A stretch of 54,876 nucleotides of DNA from Nemertoderma westbladi (GCA_032718475.1 JAUCBJ010005183.1:1-54876); one strand, 5' to 3'. Counted from the stretch's first letter, positions 3,736 to 53,465 are shown. Numbers and translations are program-made. Notes: generated by a model from the sequence alone, not told the origin.

Positions 3736-5298
3736 TATATTATACAGCATCAATAGCTACAGTAGTTAAAAAATAATGCTTGAACAATGTTAACAATTAA
3801 TATATGTAGGTGCCAAAACAATTAATTTGAATTCTAAGCATTCCAGAATATCTAAAATTGCACATAATGTAGGGCCAATCGCTCCCTTTTGTTCAAATGT
3901 AGTTACTGTAATTCAATGTAGCTATAGTAATGAAATGTAGCTACAGTAATTATAATATAATTACTGTAGCTATAGTAATAAAATGTAGCTACAGTAATTA
4001 TAATATAATTAGTAAAATTAATATAAAAAGCATTCCAGAATATAACATTGCGAATAATGTAGTCACTATTTTAAAATGTAGCTACAGTAAATTAGATGTA
4101 GCTAGCTACCCGTACAATTTCGAACCAGCAAATTTAATAAAATCATGGGTCACAACCACTAGAGTAAAGCCACCTACGATCAGCATTTAAATCATTTTAA
4201 CCCTTTACTAACCTGCATAATCTATTAACAAGCATGTGTTAACTTGTGTTGTTCCCGGTAATTCTACCAATAACAATTCATCACAATCTGTTACTTAGCA
4301 ACAAAGAAATACATGAAAATATTATTGAATTATAGATGCGGTTTCTATAACACTAATTTTAATTAGTGTATTCCAGAATACAAACAGTGAGCAAGTATAA
4401 TATTACCGCTAAACATAATAAAACATTTAGCGCATCAGCATTTATTCGATATAGCCACGTTAACATCCGCTACTGCTACGATAATATTGCACATACTTGC
4501 GTGCTACTAGTGAGTTATACATCCCGAAATTAATAAGATTTCGCCATTGATTAATTAAAGGGGCAGTTCCGCCTATGGATACAGTAATATTTTTTCTGGT
4601 ACTTTCATACTAGCTAGTTTATTGCATTTTGTCTTTTAAATTATTCTATAACTTGTTAGCCATTGATTAAAATAATTAATCCAATTCTAGGACAAAAATA
4701 TTTGTTGTAGAACATATATTAACATGTTCAAGAACAATTATTTTTTGTTCCAGAACAATTTTCTTGCTTTCAAATTTTGCAATTATTTAAATGTTTTGAA
4801 CATGTTAGCTATATTTAAATGAAATTAATGTTCTGGAATAAACATTATTTGTTCTAGAAACTTTTTTGGAATTATAAGAACAAAATGTAGCCACGGGCGG
4901 AACGATACACCCATAAGAACGAAATCTACAAGAAAATAATTAAATAATAATATTAATAAACTTATGTATAACGCTATGTTCTTGGCGCTATAATACATTA
5001 CAATATTTACACTAATAACTAATTAATTTATATATTATTCACTGCTAATGTTAAAATAATGAACGTATTAATTATTTTCTTAAACATTTCTAAGAGCTCG
5101 AATTTACACACTCGAATTCACAACTAGTGGCAGCGCATTGTAATAAATAAATGTAGCCACAGGTGGAACTTTAATATCTATTTATAGTTATTAAGTTACA
5201 GTAGCCAACTTTTGTGAACTATACAAATTTTTACTTAAAGGACATTAGTAAGCGTGCCATAACTAACTTAGACCGCGCTAAAATATCCCTCACTCACA

Positions 5299-6674
5299 AT
5301 GATGGAACAAGATAATCTCGATGAGATGTTTGTTTCACTGAATGACGATTTAGTAACTATAGACGATGATTTCATCAATGATGAAGACCTGCGGCTCTCT
5401 CAAGAAATAGAAGATAAAAACTATATTACCACCAATAAAAATAGCAACACAAACGAGGCAACAAAGAGTGCAGTAGCAGCGCTAAAAAATTTCCTGCGTC
5501 TCATCAAATGCACCAAAGAAATAACATGTATGAGTATGGAGGAACTAGCATACCACACAAATAATTTCATTAAGAGATACAAAAAAAATCAGGAGAAAAA
5601 CTGGAAACCTCGACCCTTAGGAGTTACTTCTATGGCCTATTGCGTCATTACAAGGAACTATGTATTGGGAATGTCCTCGAGCTGAAAGAATTTAAAGACA
5701 CAAAGGCGGTGTTTCTTGCCAGGTTGTCGCAGCTCAAGGCCGATGGCAAGGGTAATAACCCAAATGCCAGCGACCCAATGGATACCCATGATTTTTCCAT
5801 CATGAAGTCAAGTGGGCAGCTGGGACATTCTACCCCACAGGTGTTGCGAAACACATTGTACGTTGTTTTAACAACACAATTTGGTTGCCGCCCTGGGTTA
5901 GAAATGAGAAACATGATGGTTGGTGATGTAAAGAAGTACTTGGACCAAAAGAAGGGTCTTCACTTCCTACAACTCAAAGAGCGAAATACTAAAACCAGAA
6001 AGGGTTCCACGCCAGGTAGAGTGGTTATCCCAAAGGCGTACGAGGTACCTACAGACCGCGATGTATGTCCCGTGTTCTTGCACGAAAAATACATGGAGAA
6101 ACGGTACCCCAACGGGAAAATAATAGACGAAGACCCCTATTGGGTTCGCCCGAATCCCAATCTACCTAAGGATGGCGCATCATGGTTTTGCAACCAGCCC
6201 GTTAGGAAGAATACCTTCGGTCAGATAATGAAAGATGTTGTAAAACGCTCTGGAATCAACACGGATGGTCGCAAGATCACTCCGATGTCATATAGGAAGA
6301 CAACTGCTCAAGCTATTGTTGACCAACATCTACCAGCGACATATGCCCAGAAACAACTTGGCCATTCTAGTTTGGCCACGACATCCCGTTACATCGACGC
6401 TATTGGAACGGCACAGTACAGTGTGAGCAACGCCCTCTCAAACGTTATATCTGGCGGCGAAATTGCCTTAGATGCGGATAACAACACCACGACATTGCCT
6501 CAAGCTATGATGGCTTCCACCGCATCGACCGCTACTACTTCCTTATAAACGACTACCACGGTACAGTGTACTGATGGCTCTATAGAGTGGACCATGGACT
6601 CCATTTTTAGCAACAATAAGTTCTTTGGGAACGTGAACGTATACGTTGGATCACACCAGAATACAAATAATTAG
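5299..6674 (+). pseudogene. Crypton-type tyrosine recombinase (DUF3504-like) with one frameshift and one premature stop
   Basis: ORFs 5299..5685 and 5640..6548 join if A8 at 5581-5588 is A9 (giving KKKSGEKLETSTLRSYFYGLLRHY). Motifs GCRPGLEMRNM, ERNTKTRKG, DVCPV, WFCNQPVRKNTF, ITPMSYRKT, QLGHSSLATTSRY give the YR R-K-(H)-R-H-Y arrangement. The frame continues past TAA 6546-6548 to IFSNNKFFGNVNVYV and TAG 6672-6674. No introns. Confidence 0.85.
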
Positions 6675-16345: not shown

Positions 16346-16991
16346 TGCTCTGTTCCATGACTTATTTTCTCCATCGGGCTGCCAAAGGAAAATATTGTGT
16401 GCACTGACTGGTCTGGTCCTCACGGCGAAAGCAATGCCCTGCAAAGTGGAGACGGCTCCGTTCAAGTGTTAGGGTAATGAAACACCTCCAATACCGATAA
16501 GGTGGAAGACGTGTAAGTCACGGAATACACAGCTGTACTGTACAATACTTGGGCATTGGGTGAAACACATCGGGTCGCAAAAATAACATCTAAATTTGCC
16601 ATGTTTGTAAAACACGTTTATCCATTTTTAATATTTTTAAGATGTTTTTTGTGCAGGAGTAAAAAGACCCCATGTGAATAAAAATAGAGACTTGACATAA
16701 TTCAATGATCAAATTAAGAACAATGAACTTGTTTTTATTTTTCACATTATGTGACTCCTTATGTTTATATAAATTTTCTCGTCTGAGTCTTGATGGTCAG
16801 AATATTATACAAAGGTATACCATAAAATGTGGAAGAAGTTGTTGTAGGGTGTGTTGTATTTGGAAAAATGTATTTAAAATTAAATCTGATACAACATATT
16901 ATAATAAATATCGCAGTTACCATTAATTCAAAAATATTGAAAGCACATCTGTAGAAACACGGAATAAGGCAAACAAACAATTCACAACAAA

Positions 16992-16997
16992 TTTATT
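16992..16997 (-). promoter_or_regulatory. Candidate polyadenylation signal of DNAJC3
   Basis: AATAAA on the minus strand about 90 nt after the stop codon, followed by TG/T-rich sequence. Other AATAAA hexamers occur further downstream in this AT-rich region. Confidence 0.4.
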
Positions 16998-17084
16998 ACT
17001 TTTTTTAGTAAAGTGTATTAAATAAACCATAAAATAAATGTATGTTACAACAAACCCTCCCCCGAGTTAAGTAAAGTTGTTGCG

Positions 17085-17227
17085 TCATGTGAAGTGGAAT
17101 TTAAAGTGGGAACCCCCACCTCCGAATGGGTTGAAGCCACCGTGGTGGTGTCGGAATGGGTTACCGCGCTGCGCCTGTTCCTCCGCATCTAATGGGTCCT
17201 CCCCGCGGTCGAACTGGGCGCGTTTCT
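17085..17227 (-). CDS. DNAJC3: DNAJC3 terminal coding exon
   Basis: gtttatttcgtag|AG-KRAQFDRGEDPLDAEEQAQRGNPFRHHHGGFNPFGGGGSHFKFHFT-TGA. Matches the DNAJC3 C-terminus (FDDGEDPLDAE...FKFHFN). Confidence 0.95.
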
Positions 17228-17414
17228 CTACGAAATAAACGTAAAATTACCGTTGTCTCATACACCCCCGGTAATTAATGTCAAGATACTGATTTAAACT
17301 AAATAGTGGGTTAAACGGGAACATAAAGGATAAACTACCAGAAATAAACGGGAAACGTCTCATATAAAGGATCCTGGATACTTCCTTACACATTAATACA
17401 CGCACACAAACTAT

Positions 17415-20400
17415 ACATTGTTACCTGGACCCCTAAGGACTTCCTTTGCAGCTGCTATATCTATAAACATTGTTACCTGGGTCACTAAGAACTTCCTTTG
17501 CAGCTGCTATATCTATAAACATTGTTACCTGGGTCACTAAGGACTTCCTTTGCAGCTGCTATATCTATAAACATTGTTACCTGGGTCACTAAGAACTTCC
17601 TTTGCAGCTGCTATATCTATAAACATTGTTACCTGGGTCACTAAGAACTTCCTTTGCAGCAGCTATATCTATAAACATTGTTACCTCGGTCACTAAGAAC
17701 TTCCTTTGCAGCTGCTATATCTATAAACATTGTTACCTGGGTCACTAAGAACTTCCTTTGCAGCTGCTATATCTATAAACATTGTTACCTGGGTCACTAA
17801 GGACTTCCTTAGCAGCTGCTATATCTATAAACATTGTTACCTGGGTCACTAAGAACTTCCTTAGCAGCTGCTATATCTATAAACATTGTTACCTGGGTCA
17901 CTAAGAACTTCCTTAGCAGCTGCTATATCTATAAACATTGTTACCTGGGTCACTAAGGACTTCCTTTGCAGCTGCTATATCTATAAACATTGTTACCTGG
18001 GTCACTAAGAACTTCCTTTGCAGCTGCTATATCTATAAACATTGTTACCTGGGTCACTAAGAACTTCCTTTGCAGCTGCTATATCTATAAACATTGTTAC
18101 CTGGGTCACTAAGAACTTCCTTTGCAGCTGCTATATCTATAAACATTGTTACCTGGGTCACTAAGAACTTCCTTAGCAGCTGCTATATCTATAAACATTG
18201 TTACCTGGGTCACTAAGGACTTCCTTTGCAGCTGCTATATCTATAAACATTGTTACCTGGGTCACTAAGAACTTCCTTTGCAGCTGCTATATCTATAAAC
18301 ATTGTTACCTGGGTCACTAAGAACTTCCTTTGCAGCTGCTATATCTATAAACATTGTTACCTGGGTCACTAAGGACTTCCTTAGCAGCTGCTATATCTAT
18401 AAACATTGTTACCTGGGTCACTAAGAACTTCCTTAGCAGCTGCTATATCTATAAACATTGTTACCTGGGTCACTAAGAACTTCCTTAGCAGCTGCTATAT
18501 CTATAAACATTGTTACCTGGGTCACTAAGGACTTCCTTTGCAGCTGCTATATCTATAAACATTGTTACCTGGGTCACTAAGAACTTCCTTTGCAGCTGCT
18601 ATATCTATAAACATTGTTACCTGGGTCACTAAGAACTTCCTTAGCAGCTGCTATATCTATAAACATTGTTACCTGGGTCACTAAGAACTTCCTTTGCAGC
18701 TGCTATATCTATAAACATTGTTACCTGGGTCACTAAGAACTTCCTTTGCAGCTGCTATATCTATAAACATTGTTACCTGGGTCACTAAGAACTTCCTTTG
18801 CAGCTGCTATATCTATAAACATTGTTACCTGGGTCACTAAGAACTTCCTTAGCAGCTGCTATATCTATAAACATTGTTACCTGGGTCACTAAGGACTTCC
18901 TTAGCAGCGCTATATCTATAAACATTGTTACCTGGGTCACTAAGAACTTCCTTTGCAGCAGCTATATCTATAAACATTGTTACCTGGGTCACTAAGAACT
19001 TCCTTTGCAGCTGCTATATCTATAAACATTGTTACCTGGGTCACTAAGAACTTCCTTTGCAGCTGCTATATCTATAAACATTGTTACCTGGGTCACTAAG
19101 AACTTCCTTTGCAGCTGCTATATCTATAAACATTGTTACCTGGGTCACTAAGAACTTCCTTTGCAGCAGCTATATCTATAAACATTGTTACCTGGGTCAC
19201 TAAGGACTTCCTTTGCAGCTGCTATATCTATAAACATTGTTACCTGGGTCACTAAGAACTTCCTTTGCAGCTGCTATATCTATAAACATTGTTACCTGGG
19301 TCACTAAGAACTTCCTTTGCAGCTGCTATATCTATAAACATTGTTACCTGGGTCACTAAGGACTTCCTTAGCAGCTGCTATATCTATAAACATTGTTACC
19401 TGGGTCACTAAGGACTTCCTTTGCAGCTGCTATATCTATAAACATTGTTACCTGGGTCACTAAGAACTTCCTTTGCAGCTGCTATATCTATAAACATTGT
19501 TACCTGGGTCACTAAGGACTTCCTTTGCAGCTGCTATATCTATAAACATTGTTACCTGGGTCACTAAGGACTTCCTTTGCAGCTGCTATATCTATAAACA
19601 TTGTTACCTGGGTCACTAAGGACTTCCTTAGCAGCTGCTATATCTATAAACATTGTTACCTGGGTCACTAAGAACTTCCTTTGCAGCTGCTATATCTATA
19701 AACATTGTTACCTGGGTCACTAAGAACTTCCTTTGCAGCTGCTATATCTATAAACATTGTTACCTGGGTCACTAAGAACTTCCTTTGCAGCTGCTATATC
19801 TATAAACATTGTTACCTGGGTCACTAAGAACTTCCTTTGCAGCTGCTATATCTATAAACATTGTTACCTGGGTCACTAAGAACTTCCTTTGCAGCAGCTA
19901 TATCTATAAACATTGTTACCTGGGTCACTAAGAACTTCCTTTGCAGCTGCTATATCTATAAACATTGTTACCTGGGTCACTAAGAACTTCCTTTGCAGCT
20001 GCTATATCTATAAACATTGTTACCTGGGTCACTAAGGACTTCCTTTGCAGCTGCTATATCTATAAACATTGTTACCTGGGTCACTAAGAACTTCCTTTGC
20101 AGCTGCTATATCTATAAACATTGTTACCTGGGTCACTAAGGACTTCCTTTGCAGCTGCTATATCTATAAACATTGTTACCTGGGTCACTAAGAACTTCCT
20201 TTGCAGCAGCTATATCTATAAACATTGTTACCTGGGTCACTAAGAACTTCCTTTGCAGCTGCTATATCTATAAACATTGTTACCTGGGTCACTAAGAACT
20301 TCCTTTGCAGCAGCTATATCTATAAACATTGTTACCTGGGTCACTAAGAACTTCCTTTGCAGCAGCTATATCTATAAACATTGTTACCTGGGTCACTGAG

Positions 20401-23400
20401 AACTTCCTTTGCAGCAGCTATATCTATAAACATTGTTACCTGGGTCACTAAGAACTTCCTTTGCAGCTGCTATATCTATAAACATTGTTACCTGGGTCAC
20501 TAAGAACTTCCTTTGCAGCTGCTATATCTATAAACATTGTTACCTGGGTCACTAAGAACTTCCTTTGCAGCTGCTATATCTATAAACATTGTTACCTGGG
20601 TCACTAAGAACTTCCTTTGCAGCAGCTATATCTATAAACATTGTTACCTGGGTCACTAAGGACTTCCTTTGAAGCTGCTATATCTATAAACATTGTTACC
20701 TGGGTCACTAAGTACTTCCTTTGCAGCTGCTATATCTATAAACATTGTTACCTGGGTCACTAAGTACTTCCTTTGCAGCTGCTATATCTATAAACATTGT
20801 TACCTGGGTCACTAAGTACTTCCTTTGCAGCTGCTATATCTATAAACATTGTTACCTGGGTCACTAAGTACTTCCTTTGCAGCTGCTATATCTATAAACA
20901 TTGTTACCTGGGTCACTAAGTACTTCCTTTGCAGCTGCTATATCTATAAACATTGTTACCTGGGTCACTAAGTACTTCCTTTGCAGCTGCTATATCTATA
21001 AACATTGTTACCTGGGTCACTAAGTACTTCCTTTGCAGCTGCTATATCTATAAACATTGTTACCTGGGTCACTAAGTACTTCCTTTGCAGCTGCTATATC
21101 TATAAACATTGTTACCTGGGTCACTAAGTACTTCCTTTGCAGCTGCTATATCTATAAACATTGTTACCTGGGTCACTAAGTACTTCCTTTGCAGCTGCTA
21201 TATCTATAAACATTGTTACCTGGGTCACTAAGAACTTCCTTTGCAGCAGCTATATCTATAAACATTGTTACCTGGGTCACTAAGGACTTCCTTTGCAGCT
21301 GCTATATCTATAAACATTGTTACCTGGGTCACTAAGTACTTCCTTTGCAGCTGCTATATCTATAAACATTGTTACCTGGGTCACTAAGTACTTCCTTTGC
21401 AGCAGCTATATCTATAAACATTGTTACCTGGGTCACTAAGAACTTCCTTTGCAGCTGCTATATCTATAAACATTGTTACCTGGGTCACTAAGAACTTCCT
21501 TTGCAGCTGCTATATCTATAAACATTGTTACCTGGGTCACTAAGAACTTCCTTAGCAGCTGCTATATCTATAAACATTGTTACCTGGGTCACTAAGTACT
21601 TCCTTTGCAGCTGCTATATCTATAAACATTGTTACCTGGGTCACTAAGGACTTCCTTTGCAGCTGCTATATCTATAAACATTGTTACCTGGGTCACTAAG
21701 AACTTCCTTAGCAGCTGCTATATCTATAAACATTGTTACCTGGGTCACTAAGTACTTCCTTTGCAGCTGCTATATCTATAAACATTGTTACCTGGGTCAC
21801 TAAGAACTTCCTTTGCAGCTGCTATATCTATAAACATTGTTACCTGGGTCACTAAGAACTTCCTTTGCAGCTGCTATATCTATAAACATTGTTACCTGGG
21901 TCACTAAGTACTTCCTTTGCAGCTGCTATATCTATAAACATTGTTACCTGGGTCACTAAGAACTTCCTTAGCAGCTGCTATATCTATAAACATTGTTACC
22001 TGGGTCACTAAGAACTTCCTTTGCAGCTGCTATATCTATAAACATTGTTACCTGGGTCACTAAGAACTTCCTTTGCAGCTGCTATATCTATAAACATTGT
22101 TACCTGGGTCACTAAGAACTTCCTTTGCAGCTGCTATATCTATAAACATTGTTACCTGGGTCACTAAGGACTTCCTTTGCAGCTGCTATATCTATAAACA
22201 TTGTTACCTGGGTCACTAAGAACTTCCTTTGCAGCTGCTATATCTATAAACATTGTTACCTGGGTCACTAAGAACTTCCTTTGCAGCTGCTATATCTATA
22301 AACATTGTTACCTGGGTCACTAAGAACTTCCTTTGCAGCTGCTATATCTATAAACATTGTTACCTGGGTCACTAAGGACTTCCTTTGCAGCTGCTATATC
22401 TATAAACATTGTTACCTGGGTCACTAAGAACTTCCTTTGCAGCTGCTATATCTATAAACATTGTTACCTGGGTCACTAAGAACTTCCTTTGCAGCTGCTA
22501 TATCTATAAACATTGTTACCTGGGTCACTAAGAACTTCCTTTGCAGCTGCTATATCTATAAACATTGTTACCTGGGTCACTAAGAACTTCCTTTGCAGCA
22601 GCTATATCTATAAACATTGTTACCTGGGTCACTAAGAACTTCCTTTGCAGCTGCTATATCTATAAACATTGTTACCTGGGTCACTAAGAACTTCCTTTGC
22701 AGCTGCTATATCTATAAACATTGTTACCTGGGTCACTAAGTACTTCCTTTGCAGCTGCTATATCTATAAACATTGTTACCTGGGTCACTAAGTACTTCCT
22801 TTGCAGCAGCTATATCTATAAACATTGTTACCTGGGTCACTAAGGACTTCCTTTGCAGCTGCTATATCTATAAACATTGTTACCTGGGTCACTAAGAACT
22901 TCCTTTGCAGCTGCTATATCTATAAACATTGTTACCTGGGTCACTAAGGACTTCCTTTGCAGCTGCTATATCTATAAACATTGTTACCTGGGTCACTAAG
23001 GACTTCCTTTGCAGCTGCTATATCTATAAACATTGTTACCTGGGTCACTAAGAACTTCCTTTGCAGCTGCTATATCTATAAACATTGTTACCTGGGTCAC
23101 TAAGAACTTCCTTTGCAGCTGCTATATCTATAAACATTGTTACCTGGGTCACTAAGGACTTCCTTTGCAGCTGCTATATCTATAAACATTGTTACCTGGG
23201 TCACTAAGAACTTCCTTTGCAGCTGCTATATCTAGAAACATTGTTACCTGGGTCACTAAGAACTTCCTTTGCAGCAGCTATATCTATAAACATTGTTACC
23301 TGGGTCACTAAGAACTTCCTTAGCAGCTGCTATATCTATAAACATTGTTACCTGGGTCACTAAGAACTTCCTTTGCAGCAGCTATATCTATAAACATTGT

Positions 23401-26400
23401 TACCTGGGTCACTAAGAACTTCCTTTGCAGCTGCTATATCTATAAACATTGTTACCTGGGTCACTAAGAACTTCCTTTGCAGCAGCTATATCTATAAACA
23501 TTGTTACCTGGGTCACTAAGAACTTCCTTAGCAGCTGCTATATCTATAAACATTGTTACCTGGGTCACTAAGAACTTCCTTTGCAGCAGCTATATCTATA
23601 AACATTGTTACCTGGGTCACTAAGAACTTCCTTTGCAGCTGCTATATCTATAAACATTGTTACCTGGGTCACTAAGAACTTCCTTAGCAGCTGCTATATC
23701 TATAAACATTGTTACCTGGGTCACTAAGAACTTCCTTTGCAGCAGCTATATCTATAAACATTGTTACCTGGGTCACTAAGAACTTCCTTTGCAGCTGCTA
23801 TATCTATAAACATTGTTACCTGGACCACTAAGGACTTCCTTTGCAGCTGCTATATCTATAAACATTGTTACCTGGGTCACTAAGAACTTCCTTTGCAGCT
23901 GCTATATCTATAAACATTGTTACCTGGGTCACTAAGAACTTCCTTAGCAGCAGCTATATCTATAAACATTGTTACCTGGGTCACTAAGAACTTCCTTTGC
24001 AGCTGCTATATCTATAAACATTGTTACCTGGGTCACTAAGAACTTCCTTAGCAGCTGCTATATCTATAAACATTGTTACCTGGGTCACTAAGGACTTCCT
24101 TTGCAGCTGCTATATCTATAAACATTGTTACCTGGGTCACTAAGAACTTCCTTTGCAGCAGCTATATCTATAAACATTGTTACCTGGGTCACTAAGAACT
24201 TCCTTAGCAACTGCTATATCTATAAACATTGTTACCTGGGTCACTAAGGACTTCCTTTGCAGCTGCTATATCTATAAACATTGTTACCTGGGTCACTAAG
24301 AACTTCCTTTGCAGCAGCTATATCTATAAACATTGTTACCTGGGTCACTAAGGACTTCCTTTGCAGCTGCTATATCTATAAACATTGTTACCTGGGCCAC
24401 TAAGAACTTCCTTTGCAGCTGCTATATCTATAAACATTGTTACCTGGGTCACTAAGAACTTCCTTTGCAGCTGCTATATCTATAAACATTGTTACCTGGG
24501 TCACTAAGAACTTCCTTTGCAGCAGCTATATCTATAAACATTGTTACCTGGGTCACTAAGAACTTCCTTTGCAGCAGCTATATCTATAAACATTGTTACC
24601 TGGGTCACTAAGAACTTCCTTTGCAGCAGCTATATCTATAAACATTGTTACCTGGGTCACTAAGAACTTCCTTTGCAGCAGCTATATCTATAAACATTGT
24701 TACCTGGGTCACTAAGAACTTCCTTTGCAGCAGCTATATCTATAAACATTGTTACCTGGGTCACTAAGTACTTCCTTTGCAGCTGCTATATCTATAAACA
24801 TTGTTACCTGGGTTACTAAGAACTTCCTTTGCAGCAGCTATATCTATAAACATTGTTACCTGGGTCACTAAGAACTTCCTTTGAAGCTGCTATATCTATA
24901 AACATTGTTACCTGGGTCACTAAGAACTTCCTTTGAAGCTGCTATATCTATAAACATTGTTACCTGGGTCACTAAGAACTTCCTTTGAAGCTGCTATATC
25001 TATAAACATTGTTACCTGGGTCACTAAGAACTTCCTTTGCAGCAGCTATATCTATAAACATTGTTACCTGGGTCACTAAGAACTTCCTTTGCAGCAGCTA
25101 TATCTATAAACATTGTTACCTGGGTCACTAAGAACTTCCTTAGCAGCTGCTATATCTATAAACATTGTTACCTGGGTCACTAAGGACTTCCTTAGCAGCT
25201 GCTATATCTATAAACATTGTTACCTGGACCCCTAAGGACTTCCTTAGCAGCTGCTATATCTATAAACATTGTTACCTGGGTCACTAAGAACTTCCTTTGC
25301 AGCAGCTATATCTATAAACATTGTTACCTGGGTCACTAAGAACTTCCTTTGCAGCTGCTATATCTATAAACATTGTTACCTGGGTCACTAAGGACTTCCT
25401 TTGCAGCTGCTATATCTATAAACATTGTTACCTGGGTCACTAAGAACTTCCTTTGCAGCAGCTATATCTATAAACATTGTTACCTGGGTCACTAAGAACT
25501 TCCTTTGCAGCTGCTATATCTATAAACATTGTTACCTGGGTCACTAAGGACTTCCTTTGCAGCAGCTATATCTATAAACATTGTTACCTGGGTCACTAAG
25601 AACTTCCTTTGCAGCTGCTATATCTATAAACATTGTTACCTGGGTCACTAAGGACTTCCTTTGCAGCTGCTATATCTATAAACATTGTTACCTGGGTCAC
25701 TAAGAACTTCCTTTGCAGCTGCTATATCTATAAACATTGTTACCTGGGTCACTAAGAACTTCCTTTGCAGCTGCTATATCTATAAACATTGTTACCTGGG
25801 TCACTAAGGACTTCCTTTGCAGCAGCTATATCTATAAACATTGTTACCTGGGTCACTAAGAACTTCCTTTGCAGCTGCTATATCTATAAACATTGTTACC
25901 TGAGTCACTAAGGACTTCCTTTGCAGCTGCTATATCTATAAACATTGTTACCTGGGTCACTAAGAACTTCCTTTGCAGCTGCTATATCTATAAACATTGT
26001 TACCTGGGTCACTAAGGACTTCCTTTGCAGCAGCTATATCTATAAACATTGTTACCTGGGTCACTAAGAACTTCCTTTGCAGCTGCTATATCTATAAACA
26101 TTGTTACCTGAGTCACTAAGGACTTCCTTTGCAGCTGCTATATCTATAAACATTGTTACCTGGGTCACTAAGGACTTCCTTTGCAGCTGCTATATCTATA
26201 AACATTGTTACCTGGGTCACTAAGAACTTCCTTTGCAGCAGCTATATCTATAAACATTGTTACCTGGGTCACTAAGAACTTCCTTTGCAGCAGCTATATC
26301 TATAAACATTGTTACCTGGGTCACTAAGAACTTCCTTTGCAGCTGCTATATCTATAAACATTGTTACCTGGGTCACTAAGAACTTCCTTTGCAGCTGCTA

Positions 26401-28128
26401 TATCTATAAACATTGTTACCTGGGTCACTAAGGACTTCCTTTGCAGCTGCTATATCTATAAACATTGTTACCTGGACCACTAAGGACTTCCTTAGCAGCT
26501 GCGATATCTATAAACATTGTTACCTGGGTCACTAAGAACTTCCTTTGCAGCTGCTATATCTATAAACATTGTTACCTGGGTCACTAAGAACTTCCTTTGC
26601 AGCTGCTATATCTATAAACATTGTTACCTGGGTCACTAAGAACTTCCTTTGCAGCTGCTATATCTATAAACATTGTTACCTGGGTCACTAAGAACTTCCT
26701 TTGCAGCTGCTATATCTATAAACATTGTTACCTGGGTCACTAAGAACTTCCTTTGCAGCTGCTATATCTATAAACATTGTTACCTGGGTCACTAAGAACT
26801 TCCTTTGCAGCTGCTATATCTATAAACATTGTTACCTGGGTCACTAAGAACTTCCTTTGCAGCTGCTATATCTATAAACATTGTTACCTGGGTCACTAAG
26901 AACTTCCTTAGCAGCTGCTATATCTATAAACATTGTTACCTGGGTCACTAAGGACTTCCTTTGCAGCTGCTATATCTATAAACATTGTTACCTGGGTCAC
27001 TAAGAACTTCCTTTGCAGCTGCTATATCTATAAACATTGTTACCTGGGTCACTAAGAACTTCCTTTGCAGCTGCTATATCTATAAACATTGTTACCTGGG
27101 TCACTAAGAACTTCCTTTGCAGCTGCTATATCTATAAACATTGTTACCTGGGTCACTAAGAACTTCCTTTGCAGCTGCTATATCTATAAACATTGTTACC
27201 TGGGTCACTAAGAACTTCCTTTGCAGCTGCTATATCTATAAACATTGTTACCTGGGTCACTAAGAACTTCCTTTGCAGCTGCTATATCTATAAACATTGT
27301 TACCTGGGTCACTAAGAACTTCCTTTGCAGCTGCTATATCTATAAACATTGTTACCTGGGTCACTAAGAACTTCCTTTGCAGCTGCTATATCTATAAACA
27401 TTGTTACCTGGGTCACTAAGAACTTCCTTTGCAGCTGCTATATCTATAAACATTGTTACCTGGGTCACTAAGAACTTCCTTAGCAGCTGCTATATCTATA
27501 AACATTGTTACCTGGGTCACTAAGAACTTCCTTTGCAGCTGCTATATCTATAAACATTGTTACCTGGGTCACTAAGAACTTCCTTTGCAGCTGCTATATC
27601 TATAAACATTGTTACCTGGGTCACTAAGAACTTCCTTAGCAGCTGCTATATCTATAAACATTGTTACCTGGGTCACTAAGAACTTCCTTAGCAGCTGCTA
27701 TATCTATAAACATTGTTACCTGGGTCACTAAGAACTTCCTTTGCAGCTGCTATATCTATAAACATTGTTACCTGGGTCACTAAGAACTTCCTTTGCAGCT
27801 GCTATATCTATAAACATTGTTACCTGGGTCACTAAGAACTTCCTTTGCAGCTGCTATATCTATAAACATTGTTACCTGGGTCACTAAGAACTTCCTTAGC
27901 AGCTGCTATATCTATAAACATTGTTACCTGGGTCACTAAGGACTTCCTTAGCAGCGCTATATCTATAAACATTGTTACCTGGGTCACTAAGAACTTCCTT
28001 AGCAGCTGCTATATCTATAAACATTGTTACCTGGGTCACTAAGAACTTCCTTTGCAGCTGCTATATCTATAAACATTGTTACCTGGGTCACTAAGAACTT
28101 CCTTTGCAGCTGCTATATCTATAAACAT
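17415..28128 (-). repeat. 52-bp tandem array (about 206 units) derived from the DNAJC3 exon 3' end plus splice donor
   Basis: Unit (minus) ATGTTTATAGATATAGCAGCTGCAAAGGAAGTTCTTAGTGACCCAG|GTAACA. First donor G at 28082, last at 17424: 10658 bp = 205x52 minus two 1-bp deletions (near 18908 and 27955). Confidence 0.98.
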
Positions 28129-28192
28129 GACTTCAGCTTTCTCTTTCTCTTTTCCATCGTATCCATCGGGGTGCCATTGTGCCGCTAATTTC
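28083..28192 (-). CDS. DNAJC3: DNAJC3 J-domain exon with HPD motif, 110 nt; its 3' end is the first unit of the 52-bp array
   Basis: atttgcag|G-KLAAQWHPDGYDGKEKEKAEVMFIDIAAAKEVLSDP-G|gtaaca. It carries HPD and FIDIAAAKEVLSDP as in DNAJC3 orthologues. Only this first donor gives an open frame into the last exon by simple exon extension. Confidence 0.95.
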
Positions 28193-28554: not shown

Positions 28555-29744
28555 CGATATCTCCTTTGCAGAAGTTAAGGCTGCTGCAAAGAGCATTAAG
28601 ACCAATCGTTCCAGTGGAGTAGATGGTGTCCCCCTGAGGTCTTTAAAATACCCGAGTTTTTAAAGCTCATCTATCCCATCATAGTAGACATGTACAGAAC
28701 AACAAGAGTTCCACAAGAAATGAAAACAAATAAGTTGGTGCCAGTTCCCAAGAAGGGCAACCTAACACTCTCTGGTTCTTTTCGGGGAATCTCATTGATC
28801 TCGATTGCTGCAAAGCTATACAATATAATTCTATTAAATCGCATCAGGGATTCTATTGAGAGACTGCTCCGTGGAAATCAGAATGGGTTCCGTAAAGGTC
28901 GTGGGACCGTGGAGCCCATTTTGGCACTTTAGAAGGATAATTTAAGAGTTATCAAAAAAGAAAGACAGGCATCTGGCTGTTATCTTTGTTGACTTCTTCA
29001 AGGCCTTTGATTCAGTCTCTCGCTCACGTATGTTCAGCATACTTTCATTATATGAGATTCCTGATGAAATTATTGCAGCAATCAGATCAGTATACGATGG
29101 TTCGACAACATTTGTGTCTACTGTTGACGGTGACACAGAACCATTTGAAGTATTATGGGGAGTCCTCCAAGGAGACACACTTGCGCCATTCTTGTTCATA
29201 ATTGTGGTTGACTATGTTCTACGCATGTCCTTAGATCACCACAATGATGATGGGGTGATGGTAACTCCACCTACTGGCTCCAGAAGTCGAGGAAATCCTG
29301 CCAAGTACCTAACTGATTCAGACTTTGCTGATGACTTAGGAGTACTCTCAGAATCACTAGAGGGAGCCCAACGGCTTCTCAGCTCGTTAGAACAGGCTGC
29401 TTCTAGTGTTGGTCTTTTTATTAACTCCAGAAAGACCAAAATTTTGACAGTTAACTTTGAGAATTCTCAGCAAGTCTCTGACCGGATGAGCATAAGCTCA
29501 AAGGATGGTATGCTTGAGCATGTGGGCGACTTCTGTTACCTTTCGCCGTGAGGACCAGCCAGTGCATAATCTTGTACTTTGGCAGCCTCATGGAGTAAAT
29601 AAGCATGGTGGACAGCCCATGACTTTCTTGAGAAGCATCTTAAAGGACACTGGCCTTGAAGATGCGGATGATCTAGCAAATGTCATGGGTGATAGGGAGT
29701 TGTGGCGGCGCAATTTTGTCAACAAGCCGGCACAGCATTCTTAA
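28555..29744 (+). mobile_element. Degraded RTE-clade LINE fragment (RT domain to 3' end), antisense in DNAJC3 intron
   Basis: PVPKKGNL...FRGISLISIAAKLYN...QNGFRKGR, IFVDFFKAFDS, GVLQGDTLAPFLF, DFADD, WQPHG...DRELWR. Has stops, frameshifts and an internal deletion near 29545. Confidence 0.9.
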
Positions 29745-29779
29745 AAATGCAGTTGCAATGCAGCATGCCGATCCTAGTA

Positions 29780-32629: not shown

Positions 32630-32798
32630 CTGTATGCTTTTGTTATCTCCCTCTTAGTGGCCGTTCTCCTAACTCCCAATATTTTGTAATAATCTCTTTT
32701 CTTTGACTGTTTTATGAGTTTCTGAGTTCTCTGAATGCCTTCGTGAGACCTCCTGTGGTCCTCGTCGATGCTGTGAGCTTCCTGAAAGTCCGCCAAAG
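32630..32798 (-). CDS. DNAJC3: DNAJC3 coding exon (end of TPRs, start of J domain), 169 nt
   Basis: tatttacag|CT-LADFQEAHSIDEDHRRSHEGIQRTQKLIKQSKKRDYYKILGVRRTATKREITKAY-AG|gtgggc. Contains the J-domain start KRDYYKILGV. Confidence 0.95.
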
Positions 32799-33169: not shown

Positions 33170-34860
33170 AACAAACATACACACAGACAAACAGATAGAG
33201 ACAGACAGTCAGAGACACATACAAACATACACACACACAAACACCTAGAGACAGACAGTCAGAGACACATACAAACATACACACAGACAAACAGATAGAG
33301 ACATACAGTCAGAGACACATACAAACATACACACAGACAAACGGATAGGAGACAGACAGTCAGAGACACATACAAACATAGAAACGGACACACAGATAGA
33401 GACAGACAGTCAAAGACACATACAAACATACACACCCGACAAACAGATAGAGACAGACAGTCAGAGACACATACAAACATACACACAGACAAACAGATAG
33501 AGACATACAGTCAGAGACACATACAAACATACACACAGACAAACAGATAGAGACAGACAGTCAGAGACACATACAAACATACACACAGACAAACAGATAG
33601 AGACATACAGCCAGAGACACATACAAACATACACACAGACAAACAGATAGAGACAAACAGTCAGAGACACATACAAACATACATACACACAAACAGATAG
33701 AGACAGACAGTCAGAGACACATATAAACATAGACACGGACAAACAGATAGAGACAGAGAGTCAAAGACACATACAAAGATACACACAGACAAACAGATAG
33801 AGACAGACAGTCAGAGACACATACAAACATACACAGAGACAAACAGAGACAGACAGTCAGAGACACAGACAAACAGATAGAGACAGACAGTCAGAGACAC
33901 GTACAAACATACACACAGACAAACAGATAGAGACCGACAGTCAGAGGAACATACAAACATACGCAGAAACAAACAGATAGAGACAGAGAGTCAGAGACAC
34001 ATACAAACATAGACACGGACAAACAGATGGAGACAGACAGTCAGAGACACATACAAACATTCACACAGACAAACAGATAGAGACAGACAGTCAGAGACAC
34101 ATATAAACATAGACACGTACAAACAGATAGAGACAGACAGTCAGAGACACATACAAACATAGACACGGACAAACAGATAGAGACAGACAGTCAGAGACAC
34201 ATACAAACATATACACAGACCAACAGATAGAGACAGACAGTCAGAGATACATACAAACATAGATACGGACAAATAGATAGAGACAGACAGACAGAGACAC
34301 ATACAAACATACTCACAGACAAACATATAGAGACATACAGTCAGAAACACATACAAACATACACACGGACAAACAGATAGAGACAGACAGTCAGAGAAAC
34401 ATACAAACATACACAGAACCAAACAGATAGAGTCAGACAGTCAGAGACACATACAAACATACACACACACACGCCGATAGAGACAGACAGTCAGAGACAC
34501 ACACAAACATACACACAGACACCCCAATAGAAACATACCGTCAGAGACACATACAAACATACACACAGACAAACAGATAGAGACAGACAGTCAGAGACAC
34601 ATACAAACATACACACAGACAAACAGATAGAGACAGACAGTCTAAGACACGTACAAACATACACACAGATAGAGACAGAGAGTCAGAGACATACAAACAT
34701 ACACCCCGACAAACAGATAGAGACACACAGTCAGAGACACATATAAACATACATTCAGGCAGGTAGGTAGAAAGAGAGGCTGACATGGAGTTAGGCAGGC
34801 TGACAGATAGACAGACATACATAGAGTCATACAGGCAGACAGAGAAATAGGTAGACAGAC
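33170..34860. repeat. 50-bp CA/GA-rich minisatellite (about 31 units) decaying into simple repeats
   Basis: Unit acacacagacaaacagatagagacagacagtcagagacacatacaaacat with variants. Confidence 0.95.
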
Positions 34861-38316: not shown

Positions 38317-41162
38317 TACTACTACTACTAGGTCGAGCGAACTCGGACAGTGGAAATGAGATCCTTCCAGGCTTCCCGATTCTCCATAGTTGTCGCAATT
38401 TCGTTTCTCCCAAGTTCAGTATCCCTTTCAAGTTGATCTATATATGTTATGGCCGGTCGTCCACGACTACGCTTTCCATGAGTTGGTTGCCAGAGAAGTA
38501 GATCTGGTATGACCTCGTCTTTACTTCGCCAGCAGTGCCCACTGAATCTTAATCTGCGTTCACGGAGGCTGGTTGATACAGGTGGTATTGTACCATAAAG
38601 CTCGGCGTTTGTCATGTGTTGTCTCCAGCTGCTGTTTAGGGCTGCCCTTAGTAGTCTTGTGTAGCAACCATCAATTCGTTGTTCAAGTGATTTAGTCAGT
38701 GTCCATGTCTCACCTCCGTATAAAAATACACTTTCCACTGTGGCTCGAAAGAACTTGGTCTTCAGGTGCCTGGAGAGATTTGATTTCCAGATGGTATCCA
38801 TTTTTGATAGAGCTACCCAAGCCTTTGCTTTCCTAACTTCTATGTCCTTTTTGCTACTCTCTATCCATGATCCAAGGTACTGGAAGTCATCGACCTGCCT
38901 TAGTTGATTATTATCAATGGTTGTCAAGTTTCCATCAACATTAAAGGTCATGAATTCGGTCTTGGTAGCATTTATATGCAATCCAACCTCCTTAGCAGCC
39001 CTCTCCACTTTATTTAGTAGAAGCTGTGCATCTGCTAGCGTATTAGAGAGCAGGGCGATGTCATCCGCAAAGTCGGTATCTGTGACTGTAGTTGCCGGAT
39101 ATCTACTACTTCTGCGTTCTTGAAGTGTGAATCCCAGATCTTCACCCTTTGTGGCCGTCCTCATTGCGTAATCCAGCACAATTACAAATAGTAATGGTGC
39201 TAATGTGTCACCTTGCAGTACGCCAGCCAGGATTGAGAAAAACTCAGTTTCACCATCTGGTGAGAGTACCTGCGCTTCTGTGTCACAATATAGCAATCCA
39301 ATGCCAGCAACAATTACTTCTGGTATTCCATAAGCTCTTAGGATTTCAAGCATTTTACCTCTATGGATGGAGTCGAATGCCTTCTTGAAGTCCACAAAAG
39401 TCATGACTGCGGGGAGATTCTTTGACTTGATTCCTTCAATCAGTCTCCGTAGTGCAAGTATCTGAGCTATTGTTGATCTACTTGGTCGAAATCCGTTTTG
39501 ACTCTTACGCAGTAGTTTCTCTATGTGAGGCCTAATCCTATATAGAATCATTTTATTGTATATTTTGGCAGCTACCACAAGCAGACAGATCCCACGATAG
39601 TTTGTTGGTATGCCGAGGTCTCCTTTCTTGGGGAGAGGCTTTAGTTGACCTTTAGTCCAAATTGGTGGTGGCTTTTCCCCTTTTAACATCCGGTTGCAAA
39701 CATTCAATAATGGTCTATTTAGCACTCCGGTTTTCCATACCTCCGCTGGGATTTCATCTAATCCACTCGCTTTATTATTGGACATGCTTTTAATGCTTCT
39801 TTGGAGTTCGGCAGGTGTGAAGTCCCCTGTTTCTATAGGTAGTGTCTTGTCATATATTTTCCTTGTAGGGCTGACCTCGATGTTTGGTGGCTGCCCAAGC
39901 AAGTTGCTGAAGTGATTTTTCCACTTCCCAACACGTTCTTCAGGACTATCGGCTTTGAGGCGCCCCTTTGCACTACTTTTCCGACCAGATACCTCATTTA
40001 CAGTTTGCCAGGTAAGTCTTGATTGTTGCTGTATGTGAGCAGTTGTAATTGCTTCAGTTTTATCCTGTATGTACTTTTCCTGGCTGATGTTGTAGGCCAA
40101 TTTAAGGTCGTCCTTAGCTTTCTCAACCTTGTTAATGTTTTCGGTTGTTGGTTGTTCGGTTTTAACTTTGTAGGCTATCTTAAGATATTCTCTCTTACAA
40201 GTAACCTCAGAGTTTTGCCATGGCACATACTGTTTTCGTTTAGGTTTCTGGGGGATATGCCTCTTAGCTGATTCCTTGTGGGCTGTTATTATATTCTGGT
40301 ATATTGAATCGGTGGACTGGTCTTCATCCATTGACTGAAGTGCTTCAAAGCGGTTTTGAACTTCTACTGTATAAGCATCCTTTACAGCATTGTCAGTCAT
40401 CCCAGTCATATTTGATTTGCTTGCTTGTCCTGGGTTTGCTGGCTCTCAAACTGAGTCTGATCTCTGCAGTCACAATTCTGTGGTCCGAACCAATTAGGTT
40501 GAACGAGCTGTATGCCTCGCAGTTGATCATGCTATTTCTCCACTTTTTGTTTATAAGGATGTAATCCAGTTGTGCTTTGGTTCCATTAGGGTATTGAAAG
40601 GTCCATAGCTTCCCCTTACTCTTTTCGAATGTGTTGTTTGTTGGTATCAATTCACATTCTTCCATTAGGTCAAGAGTAAGTACCCATTTCTGTTAGAACT
40701 GGTGTTATAGGTGTAACCCTTGATGTCTTCTGGGCCAATTTGCGCATTCAGGTCACCAGCAATGACTTTAACATTGTGTTTCGGGATGTCCTTAATAAGT
40801 CCAGTCAGTTCTTCATAAAACTTGACTGCTTGTTCTGGCTCTGATGCATTGGTTGGACTGTAGCAACATATAACTGTTGTCTTGGGATTCCCATCAAATG
40901 TTGCGATCATAACCCTGGAATTTATAGATTCGATGTTGTTTAGGGTCTTAAGTGCAAATGGGCTTAGCAGAATTCCTACTCCACCAATTGATGCATTGGC
41001 CGAGTTTCTTACTGCTGAGCTTGTTACTAACGTCCATCCATTTCCAATGTCATTGTACTTCATGGCAGTGTCTTCATGACAAATCCGATGTTCTTGGATG
41101 CAGATGATGTCGATGTTATATTCCATTGCCAGAGCGACCATGTCACCCTGTTTGCTCTCTGG
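38317..41162 (-). mobile_element. Nearly full-length RTE-clade LINE (APE + RT), 5'-truncated, two frameshifts
   Basis: ORFs 40665..41141 and 40393..40665 (APE: ICIQEHR, YSPT, GDLNA, LDYIL, SDH) and 38328..40409 (RT: FVDFKKAFDS, GVLQGDTLAP, FADD). (TAG)n 3' tail at 38317-38330. Candidate TSD atatagaaaaata (38306-38318) / atatagaacaata (41163-41175). Confidence 0.95.
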
Positions 41163-41479
41163 ATATAGAACAATATATATACAATTATATCGAAGACCTA
41201 TATAAAACCTCTACTAAGTGGATTAATAAAAAGTGGGAAGTGACAAAAAGTGATTTATATTTTTATCGAAATTACTTTATTTTTTTGTTCGATTTTTGTC
41301 ATTATAGTGCAGCACAGAAATGCACAACACACCTAGATACTTCAATCACCTGCTATCTATGATGATTTTAATTTATGATGGTTTAAGAGGCAGCATCCAT
41401 AAATGATGGGAGACATTTTTAGTAGCGAATTAAAATGAAAAACAAATTGTATCACTTAATAATCAAACAGCTAACCAAC

Positions 41480-41706
41480 CCTCATCGAATTCATCGTTTA
41501 GTAAATGTGCGTCCGCCCTGTCACACAAAACATCTGGTTGTTCCGGGTTTCTCTGCAGAACTTGACTGCATATTGATATTGCATCATCCACGAGTTTGGC
41601 TTTGCTGTGGGCGTGGCACAACTGCGTATCAATGCGCTCCGTAAACGCTGTCATCGTCGATTCAGTTTTCCTCGCTGCATATAGTTTTTCAATAGCCTCG
41701 GTGTAT
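41480..41706 (-). CDS. DNAJC3: DNAJC3 coding exon (TPR region), 227 nt
   Basis: ttttatcgcag|A-YTEAIEKLYAARKTE...LCHAHSKAKLVDDAISICSQVLQRNPEQPDVLCDRADAHLLNDEFDE-G|gttggt. It lies inside ORF 41463..41801 and phases fit the flanking exons. Confidence 0.93.
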
Positions 41707-42315: not shown

Positions 42316-43170
42316 ATACTGACCTACAATTCACGGTTATAATTAAATAACTGCCAGTTATATTGGACATTAAAAACTTTCGGTTTGAACCTGGCTTACA
42401 ACTCACGGTTATAATTAAATAACTGCCAGTTATATTGGACATTAAAAACTTTCGGTTTGAACCTGGCTTACAACTCACGGTTATAATTAAATAACTGCCA
42501 GTTATATTGGACATTAAAAACTTTCGGTTTGAACCTGGCTTACAACTCACGGTTATAATTAAATATCTGCCAGTTATATTGGACATTAAAAACTTTCGGT
42601 TTGAACCTGGCTTACAACTCACGGTTATAATTAAATAACTGCCAGTTATATTGGACATTAAAAACTTTCGGTTTGAACCTGGCTTACAACTCACGGTTAT
42701 AATTAAATAACTGCCAGTTATATTGGACATTAAAAACTTTCGGTTTGAACCTGGCTTACAACTCACGGTTATAATTAAATAACTGCCAGTTATATTGGAC
42801 ATTAAAAACTTTCGGTTTGAACCTGGCTTACAACTCACGGTTATAATTAAATAACTGCCAGTTATATTGGACATTAAAAACTTTCGGTTTGAACCTGGCT
42901 TACAACTCACGGTTAAAATTAAATAACTGCCAGTTATATTGGACATTAAAAACTTTCGGTTTGAACCTGGCTTACAACTCACGGTTATAATTAAATAACT
43001 GCCAGTTATATTGGACATTAAAAACTTTCGGTTTGAAACTGACTTACAACTCACGGTTATAATTAAATAACTGCCAGTCAAGTTATATTGGACTTTAAAA
43101 ACTTTCGGGTTGATACTGACCTACACTGCAACCCACTGTTATAATTAAATAACTGCCAGATATAGTGGAC
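42316..43170. repeat. 72-bp minisatellite (about 11-12 units) in the left arm of the EnSpm element
   Basis: Unit tattggacattaaaaactttcggtttgaacctggcttacaactcacggttataattaaataactgccagtta. The phase repeats every 360 bp (5 units). Confidence 0.95.
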
Positions 43171-44589: not shown

Positions 44590-45149
44590 CTATTTTTAGA
44601 GTCACGGTAGGCCTGCCTGGGTATTTCAGTTATTGATAGTAACAATGTGTTGGCCTTGGCAAGCTGTATTTTTCGAGGTAGGCTTATCAGCTTATTTCAG
44701 TTCAGTCAGTTCTGCAGTTGCAGTTAGTAGATTTAATCCAGACTGGAATCTCTCGGGTTTTTCGGGAAGATGTCCGGCAGACTGACTGGTTGCCGGTGTT
44801 GGCGTTGGGTGTAGGCCAGTCCAGCAGTCAGCCAGTAGGCAGGTAGGTGGACCTATTACCTGACAGCCTGATTACTGTAGGGTAAGATACCCCTATTGGC
44901 CCTATTCCGACGTGTGGCTAAGTCACACGAATAGTTCCCAAAAGGCAATTTGGCATTTTTGAAATGCCAAATGGCAAACTCCCATGCTTGCATGGGAGTG
45001 TGTATCTACTGCTGTAGGCCTACTGCAGTACTGCCAGACTGCTGTACTGTCTGACTGTAATCTCTCACTCCTGCACTCTCTGACTGTTATTAATCTCACA
45101 TCACATACCGGTAGACCTATTAATCTCACAGCCTTAGATTTAAATAATC

Positions 45150-45986
45150 ATGTCTGCGTCTGGCATGTCAGAAAATATTCATAAGTGCGACTGCGGTGAA
45201 GATTTGCACCCCAAATTCAAGATATGTCCTAGTTGTGACAAACCCATTCACAAACCAAAGGCGGTCCCAAAATGCTGCGGGTATCCGATGAAATCCAGTT
45301 GGGCACCACGATGCCCAATATGTTTGAAAAACAGATCCACTGGTTCGGGTTCTATGTTTCAACAAATAGTGAGTAGGCCTACCAACGTCAGCCCATCCCT
45401 AAACCAAATGTCCCCTTCGGATGTCGAATCCGAAATCGAAAACTCGTGTACCGGTACTGGTACAGATAAGGGTAAGTGCACCGGTAGTTCTCTGTCGCCA
45501 CACGAGAGAATGAGATCAACCTTAAAAATAGAGTCTCTGGGTGGCGCCATGTACTATGTTCCTCCCCCCCTCTTGGACAACGACGGCATTTCTACAGTTC
45601 CCGTGTTGAAGTTGGAGATCAATAAAGCAATCCACGAGGGTGATCCTCTATTCAAGAAGTGTATTCGTCACTTCCAATCTATGATTGAATCTCATTACAA
45701 ACTCTTTGTCAGGTTGTACAAGAGAACTTTTCCCAAGCTCCATTACACCCTACATGTTGTGGACGATATCATTAACTTTGGTCCCCCCCGTTCGCATTGG
45801 GCCATGAGATTCAAATCACAACATGGCGTTTTAAAAAAATGGTTGAAAGCCCAGCAATGTTATAAAAATGTTCCACTTTATTTATGCAAGAGGCTTCAAG
45901 AACAATTGTGCTATAATCTGACAGTTAATAAATCGGGGTTTGTTTATGAGTTTATTAAAGGTGTAAGTCGGGTAGACAGTAATTAA
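45150..45986 (+). pseudogene. Chimeric EnSpm ORF: double zinc-ribbon N-terminus fused to transposase C-terminal fragment
   Basis: CDCG..CPSC..CCG..CPIC at the start. FPKLHYTLHVVDDIINFGPPRSHWAMRFKSQHGVLKK...YKNVPLYL resembles the animal EnSpm motif PKxHxxxH...FGP...WxMRFExxH, with E replaced by K. Confidence 0.75.
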
Positions 45987-49787: not shown

Positions 49788-49907
49788 TCGTTTGTATTTA
49801 TAAATTCCTGAGCGTCTTTCAATTGTTTAGCCAACTTTTTCACTTTCTTGTAGAAGGTAAAGCATTGTTTGTGATCCGGGTCCAACTTCAAGCACTCGCG
49901 AACCATC
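49788..49907 (-). CDS. DNAJC3: DNAJC3 coding exon (TPR region), 120 nt
   Basis: ccctttgcag|G-MVRECLKLDPDHKQCFTFYKKVKKLAKQLKDAQEFINTN-GA|gtaagt. Phase is compatible with both neighbours and it matches the conserved 'VRECLKLDQDHKRCF' motif. Confidence 0.95.
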
Positions 49908-53283: not shown

Positions 53284-53465
53284 ATAAGTGACTCGTCTTC
53301 GTCCCCCACTTGGTAGTTGAGAGTGGCGAGCTTCATGTAGCCGTTGGTGTTATCGGTACGGAGTTTGGTTGTGGGCCGGAGATCGTGGATGGCCTTGTTG
53401 ACCTCACCAAGCTCCAGGTAGCAGTCGGCTCTCTGTTCCCTCAGTGCGGCATTCCAGGGGCAATT
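53284..53465 (-). CDS. DNAJC3: DNAJC3 coding exon (first in window, TPR region), 182 nt
   Basis: Minus strand reads tttctcccccag|NCPWNAALREQRADCYLELGEVNKAIHDLRPTTKLRTDNTNGYMKLATLNYQVGDEDESL+AT|gttagt. It aligns by eye with vertebrate DNAJC3 'VCVWDAELRELRAECFIKEGEPRKAISDLKAASKLKNDNTEAFYKISTLYYQLGDHELSL'. Confidence 0.93.

Follow-up and report, generated by a model that had tools for sequence, protein, structure and literature searches.

How does a spliceosome choose among some two hundred near-identical 5' splice sites laid end to end at the margin of a coding exon? The question is raised by a stretch of 54,876 nucleotides (nt) from the genome of Nemertoderma westbladi (GCA_032718475.1, JAUCBJ010005183.1:1-54876; hereafter the window), whose minus strand carries part of a gene that, judged from the domains it would encode, is DNAJC3 (P58IPK), and in whose last intron a 52-bp minisatellite repeats the end of the penultimate exon (exon E, Table 1) together with its splice donor. 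DNAJC3 is an endoplasmic reticulum (ER)-stress co-chaperone, with an N-terminal signal peptide and a location in the ER. Our analysis indicates that the array is probably a tolerated intronic minisatellite governed by first-donor splicing, and that donors 2 to 206 are likely carried along as passengers and do not serve as a dial on the output of the gene.

Tandem Repeats Finder describes the array (17415-28128) with a period of 52, 206.1 copies, 97% matches and a score of 20350, and parsing of the minus strand yields 206 units, 204 of them of 52 nt and two of 51 nt, followed by a 4-nt partial unit. Each unit joins 46 nt from the end of the DNAJC3 J-domain exon to GTAACA, and unit 1 forms the end of the genuine exon, which has a DnaJ match and is spliced at 28083; a preliminary description of this DNA had put the array at about 206 copies of such a unit, the first of them part of the real exon, and both statements are borne out. 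AG|GTAACAAT is retained in 206 of 206 units, which matches the same description's count by eye of an AG|GTAACA in every unit; the longer CAG|GTAACA occurs in 205 of 206, unit 201 having GAG|GTAACA (G for C at position -3). Outside the array, CAGGTAACA has no further occurrence on the minus strand of the window. As assembled, the last intron measures 10,855 nt, against 197 nt if it held one unit.

The units fall into 23 types with a mean identity of 98.6%, and the sequence of unit 1 is found in 86 of the 206. Their order along the array is structured: units 4-9 equal units 178-183, an identity that amounts to a long-range duplication or conversion within the array, and like variants cluster (23 adjacent pairs, where 2000 shuffles gave a mean of 10 and a maximum of 21; one pair of units was wrongly split in this count). 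An exactly repeated block extends over at most 8 unit types, a length reached in 11 of 200 shuffles and so uninformative alone, and the distal unit 206 is among the most divergent.

Four of the six sequencing runs of the organism (X1, X2, X4 and X5) were examined as assembled contigs, which were compared with stretches holding one unit at each array end. X1, a DNA-like run with 0 differences from the window over 1025 nt, may represent the sample from which the window derives. It contains one contig that goes back 52 nt, that is, a unit-to-unit junction, at a depth of 2926.8 against 32.1 in the single-copy flank; the resulting 91-fold excess compares with the 129-fold predicted for consensus 31-mers by the assembled array, and corresponds to a per-chromosome mean of about 146 copies against 206 assembled, a gap that a shorter second allele would explain. 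X2, a DNA-like run from another sample and another study, contains two contigs that go back in the same way, and its summed unit depth of 924-2016 against 24.2 in the flank (38- to 83-fold) is a sum over contigs that indicates many copies and gives no copy number. On the evidence that contigs can give, the array is real and no artefact of assembly, and its copy number is that of the assembly. Going by a difference between X2 and the window at 17414-17415, the two bases at the array end, the distal border differs between individuals. The segment 28145-28212 is without cover in both X1 and X2, for which a filter may be the cause.

The donor in use was read from X4 (study P3) and from X5 (study P2), the latter from the same sample as X2. 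Both runs are recorded as 'DNA?', and we infer their RNA origin from spliced, poly(A)-ended contigs. X4 yields a 1185-nt contig, at a depth of 2505.7, in which record letter 775 is the final letter of exon E and 776 the first of the last exon, which continues to poly(A) at 16844, the other loose end consisting of exon D sequence; X5 yields a 350-nt contig with the same join at 146/147. Exon E shows 0 differences in either contig, no extra unit stands at the join, and the depth of the distal unit in both runs is fully accounted for by the single spliced contig. Unit-to-unit contigs number 0 in X4 and X5, against one in X1 and two in X2, with the reservation that contigs drop rare forms, and no product of a later donor is found among the X4 and X5 contigs, where rare forms are dropped and nonsense-mediated decay (NMD) is active. 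A common later-donor or unspliced form should produce a loop and a broken contig in the 31-mer graph; the X4 contig is unbroken. Logan contigs undergo graph simplification (PMC12424806), for which the accessible text states no cut-off. A retrocopy is an unlikely origin for the spliced contigs, because X5 shares its sample with X2, whose DNA has the array and no spliced joint. First-donor use is thus shown, at contig resolution, for the dominant mRNA of two studies, in agreement with the strict first-donor rule that the preliminary description had offered as one of its options, the contigs passing from exon 28192-28083 directly to the last exon.

Masking of the later donors by RNA structure was considered as a basis for this choice and rejected, since local folding makes donor 1 (unpaired probability 0.63) no more open than six inner donors (0.61-0.77), with donor 206 at 0.43-0.52. 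The upstream context is identical across donors for 46 nt. Since folding does not favour donor 1, the explanation that remains is its position and not structure; closure at donor 1 gives an exon of 110 nt, and closure at later donors gives 162, 214 nt and up.

Read-through from donor 1 encodes PGNNVYRYSSCKGSS and then a stop, so that all later donors end at the same TAG and none of them offers a useful in-frame product. Exon E stops at position 56 of 63 of the DnaJ profile, so that in a later-donor product the last part of the J-domain would be missing along with the C-terminal tail. The preliminary description had placed this TAG (28041-28039) 8 nt from donor 2 and at least 60 nt from later donors, and its arithmetic of frame and decay is correct. 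A stop lying more than 50-55 nt before an exon junction is the usual trigger of NMD, and by this rule a donor-2 product would escape whereas products of donor 3 and later would not, which makes the missing donor-2 contig the more telling result.

The tolerated minisatellite could have been born by slippage or unequal exchange between ATGT repeats flanking the unit, given that ATGTTTATAG opens the unit and ATGTATAG opens the sequence after the last unit, and it would then have grown by unequal exchange between units, a course supported by the identity of units 4-9 and 178-183 and by the clustering of like variants. Donor 1 is likely chosen because the normal 110-nt exon is closed first, whether through exon definition or through 5'-to-3' scanning, by analogy with human F7, and NMD would remove any leak to donor 3 or later. 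The genome forms minisatellites readily, to judge from the window, with two further arrays in other DNAJC3 introns (33171-34753 and 42325-43170) and more nearby.

Several points weigh against this reading. The data are contigs only, in which a minor donor-2 product of the kind known from IFI6, CBS and ABCA7 would escape notice, and NMD would hide use of donors 3-206; the RNA status of X4 and X5 is deduced in the face of their 'DNA?' records. No donor position varies over the 206 units (P 0.065), and a bias of the variants towards synonymous changes probably shows that the evolution of the array is not free. Selection keeping all donors intact was tried as an explanation of the invariance and rejected as not significant.

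The synonymous bias was noticed post hoc in one haplotype, and a two-copy deletion was excluded from the counts. Read in the exon frame, 7 of the 15 distinct substitutions are synonymous and together account for 135 of the 152 substitution copies, compared with 28 of the 156 possible changes (18%), and the four commonest variants (43, 36, 32 and 18 copies, at unit positions 33, 18, 24 and 33) are all synonymous changes at four-fold sites. In unit 1, positions 18, 24 and 33 correspond to window 28111, 28105 and 28096. Permutation returns P values of 0.0002-0.0004 for the weighted count, 0.007-0.013 for distinct variants and 0.0008-0.0014 for the top four, and the other five frames score 8, 3, 87, 8 and 1 (against 135). 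Rare variants lie at the neutral share (3 of 11 synonymous, P 0.32). Without any change to the protein, 189 of the 206 units could substitute for unit 1. Local template switching does not suffice by itself to explain the silent variants, P still being at most 0.0026 after weighting for it. Conversion that is even-handed, combined with constraint on the first unit, also falls short, failing in a diffusion sketch (P 0.002) that needs a 20- to 50-fold donor preference for unit 1 or exon alleles.

As an addition that is compatible with a tolerated minisatellite, the coding unit or the exon alleles of the homologue may act as the preferred conversion donor and re-seed the array with silent variants, a proposal that we regard as quite possible, if on balance somewhat doubtful. 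In its favour stands the synonymous excess itself, carried by the copy count and by all four of the top variants, and this excess survives the weighting for local templates and is confined to the common variants, the rare ones being neutral; the test was nevertheless made after the fact on one haplotype and three sites, the P value for four synonymous top variants falls to only 0.026 once it is conditioned on the 15 observed variants, and three of these four are among the 37 changes that have a local template of at least 5 nt. The exon-unit sequence is present in 23 of the 31 first units and 63 of the remaining 175, as feeding from the exon would predict, but the units are not independent. The encoded FIDIAAAKEVLSDP is the same in human DNAJC3, whereas unit 1 carries none of the silent variants in X4 or X5, and the 20- to 50-fold donor bias that the proposal requires is hypothetical. 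A shade more doubtful is the further step of viewing the array as an archive of silent, protein-compatible DNAJC3 alleles, with the coding unit or the exon alleles of the homologue as master copy; no copy of the 205 is seen translated. Polar conversion at minisatellites is a familiar phenomenon. Inter-allelic non-reciprocal exchange is supported for minisatellites, with no significant polarity, in one study (PMC2599865). In the literature searched, with most subscription journals outside its coverage, we found no description of a synonymous bias in intronic exon copies. If exon feeding is true and general, minisatellites at exon edges would preserve a record of conversion running one way, from exon to intron.

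The other option of the preliminary description was a dial, in which donor choice or array length would set the output of full-length DNAJC3 by way of a truncated product from donor 2 and the decay by NMD of products from later donors. We consider this unlikely, and find the proposal unsupported at contig resolution with NMD not blocked: no later-donor contig appears in X4 or X5, though a donor-2 product would escape NMD. The arithmetic of frame and NMD on which the dial depends does hold, and 206 of 206 donors are intact, but their conservation is not significant (P 0.065). Human precedents point both ways: ABCA7 has a one-unit retention product, and its exon 19 skipping tracks repeat length, but the retention itself is unchanged with repeat size (PMC5954066), and IFI6 and CBS use two further donors, but far donors are used less in F7, and hence extra distal units should add little (PMC1557585). 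The summed unit depth differs between X1 and X2, which is a weak hint of length variation.

Very unlikely, in our estimate, is stepwise or repeat splicing, in which excision of a unit would regenerate a CAG|GT donor, allowing a mis-spliced transcript to be re-spliced to normal mRNA, or in which a 36-nt in-frame microexon would be formed. The units fit this scheme exactly, and it would yield a mature mRNA identical to that made via donor 1, so the X4 and X5 contigs are compatible with it; the unit end is, however, a poor acceptor, having a pyrimidine share of 0.40 and three upstream AGs against 0.45-0.85 and 0-1 AG in six real acceptors. For the microexon, each unit has 36 nt in the same phase between an AG at unit positions 9-10 and its donor (28083-28118 in unit 1), but no 36-nt go-back joint is present among the X4 and X5 contigs. 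Scarcely credible, finally, is an array that is an assembly artefact or is much shorter than assembled, since, even with about 146 rather than 206 copies implied by X1 and a length that rests on the assembly and not on spanning long reads, such a reading is opposed by unit-to-unit contigs in two studies, the 91-fold depth in X1, and the structured, clustered variants with their duplicated block.

The identity of the host gene follows from six minus-strand exons with AG/GT borders and compatible phases, the earlier (5') exons of DNAJC3 falling outside the window (Table 1). Pfam returns TPR, near-TPR or DnaJ matches of varying strength in three of the exons and none in two. The DnaJ match of exon E has an E value of 3e-7, and the same exon aligns with residues 405-441 of human DNAJC3 at E 1.4e-10, FIDIAAAKEVLSDP being identical in the two. 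In the PDB search, both of the two exon C matches and the best exon E match are DNAJC3; the last exon has no match in the PDB or Pfam searches. A homologue search with exon C gave no match at E 1e-10 among 21 candidates. The assignment to DNAJC3 is based on a TPR region that precedes a C-terminal J-domain carrying the HPD motif.

Table 1. Coordinates of the DNAJC3 exons, the minisatellite and its component features in the window
Feature	Position	Strand	Basis
DNAJC3 exon A (predicted; weak TPR matches)	53284..53465	-	Frame, splice signals, Pfam
DNAJC3 exon B (predicted; without Pfam match)	49788..49907	-	Frame and splice signals
DNAJC3 exon C (TPR region; human DNAJC3 match, E 1e-11)	41480..41706	-	Pfam, PDB
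DNAJC3 exon D (J-domain start); end joined to exon E in X4 contig	32630..32798	-	
DNAJC3 exon E (110 nt; HPD motif to LSDP), with splicing at donor 1 seen in X4 and X5 contigs	28083..28192	-	
Minisatellite with a 52-bp unit (exon end, 46 nt, + GTAACA) in 206 copies and a 4-nt partial unit	17415..28128	-	Tandem Repeats Finder, unit parsing
Unit 1: last 46 coding nt of J-domain exon and first 6 intron bases	28077..28128	-	
Donor 1 (CAG|GTAACA), donor seen in use; 9/11 matches to the U1 consensus, best of the window's 5 DNAJC3 donors	28077..28082	-	
TAG met by any later-donor product, lying 8 nt upstream of donor 2 and 60 nt upstream of donor 3	28039..28041	-	
Units 4-9, equal to units 178-183 (18615-18925); each block led by a rare 51-nt unit	27662..27972	-	
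Unit 206, which forms the distal edge and has 4 differences to unit 1	17419..17470	-	
Unique remainder of last intron	17228..17418	-	
Last exon: J-domain region end, Gly/Phe-rich tail, stop ending at 17085, 3' untranslated region to poly(A) site 16844	16844..17227	-	

The window holds further repeats and mobile elements. A near full-length long interspersed nuclear element (LINE), with endonuclease, reverse transcriptase and frame breaks, lies at 38328-41210 (-) in the DNAJC3 intron that separates exons C and D, and the intron directly upstream of the J-domain exon contains a LINE reverse transcriptase fragment at 28600-29760 (+). Frames at 5272-6548 (+) match DUF3504 and phage integrase, which we take to be a resemblance to a Crypton-type tyrosine recombinase element. 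Of the other tandem arrays, the one at 33171-34753 has a 50-bp unit in 32 copies and the one at 42325-43170 a 72-bp unit in 11.6 copies with a donor-like GTGAGT on the gene strand, both in DNAJC3 introns and neither at an exon edge, while a perfect 23-bp array at 1-210 runs off the window, its minus-strand units holding a donor-like CCAG|GTAC, with no exon seen beside the first unit. A 280-codon open frame with cysteine pairs lies on the opposite strand in a DNAJC3 intron (45144-45986, +) and has no Pfam match.

The layout of the DNAJC3 array is already known from several human genes and from lancelets, and its novelty was overrated in the preliminary description. Intron 7 of F7 carries a 37-bp variable-number tandem repeat (VNTR) whose first unit lies across the exon-intron border (Borensztajn et al. 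2006, PMC1557585). The first donor alone is used in F7, LMNB2 and PDGF, and two further donors are also used in IFI6 (6-16) and CBS; with F7 minigenes, splicing always picks the functional donor that lies farthest upstream, downstream donors are functional once the first is lost, and exon skipping results from far donors (PMC1557585). The DNAJC3 array shares with this type a border-spanning first unit and identical downstream donors, and with F7, LMNB2 and PDGF the use of the first donor, whereas the further donors used in IFI6 and CBS have no counterpart seen in it at contig resolution. It differs in scale, with 206 units compared with 5-9 for F7 and no more than about 26 for IFI6, CBS, LMNB2 and PDGF, and in composition, the F7 unit including few exon bases and the DNAJC3 unit being coding in 46 of its 52 positions.

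In lancelets, 'mirages' at Adh3, globin, TnC and PGBD5 are exon-edge tandem copies that leave splicing undisturbed (PMC3087553, PMC3902484). Like the DNAJC3 array, they place an exon edge and its splice signals in tandem, with regular splicing, concerted evolution and a divergent edge unit; the mirages at globin genes consist of 2-6 units, each about 150 bp long, so that the DNAJC3 array is far longer, and the accessible text of both papers makes no mention of the synonymous variant bias found here. A 25-bp VNTR in intron 18 of human ABCA7 reaches up to 10,678 bp, or about 427 units (De Roeck et al. 2018, PMC5954066). It resembles the DNAJC3 array in starting at the donor, in the length reached, and in that retention of one unit causes a frameshift and an early stop; its unit, in contrast, is intronic, starting with GT, and is not an exon copy, and its length has a shown effect on exon skipping whereas none is shown for the DNAJC3 array. 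No paper on such an array in DNAJC3 was found by title in the literature searched. What is distinctive here is the copy number among exon-rich units, together with the silent-variant bias.

With about 205 spare donors, each in its full 46-nt exon context and spaced 52 nt apart, and yet a dominant mRNA made from the first donor, the Nemertoderma array is an extreme specimen of its type. It provides a natural test of 5' splice site choice among identical sites, outside mammals. Should the silent-variant bias hold in other alleles and arrays, it would mean that a coding exon can steer a large intronic satellite through biased conversion.

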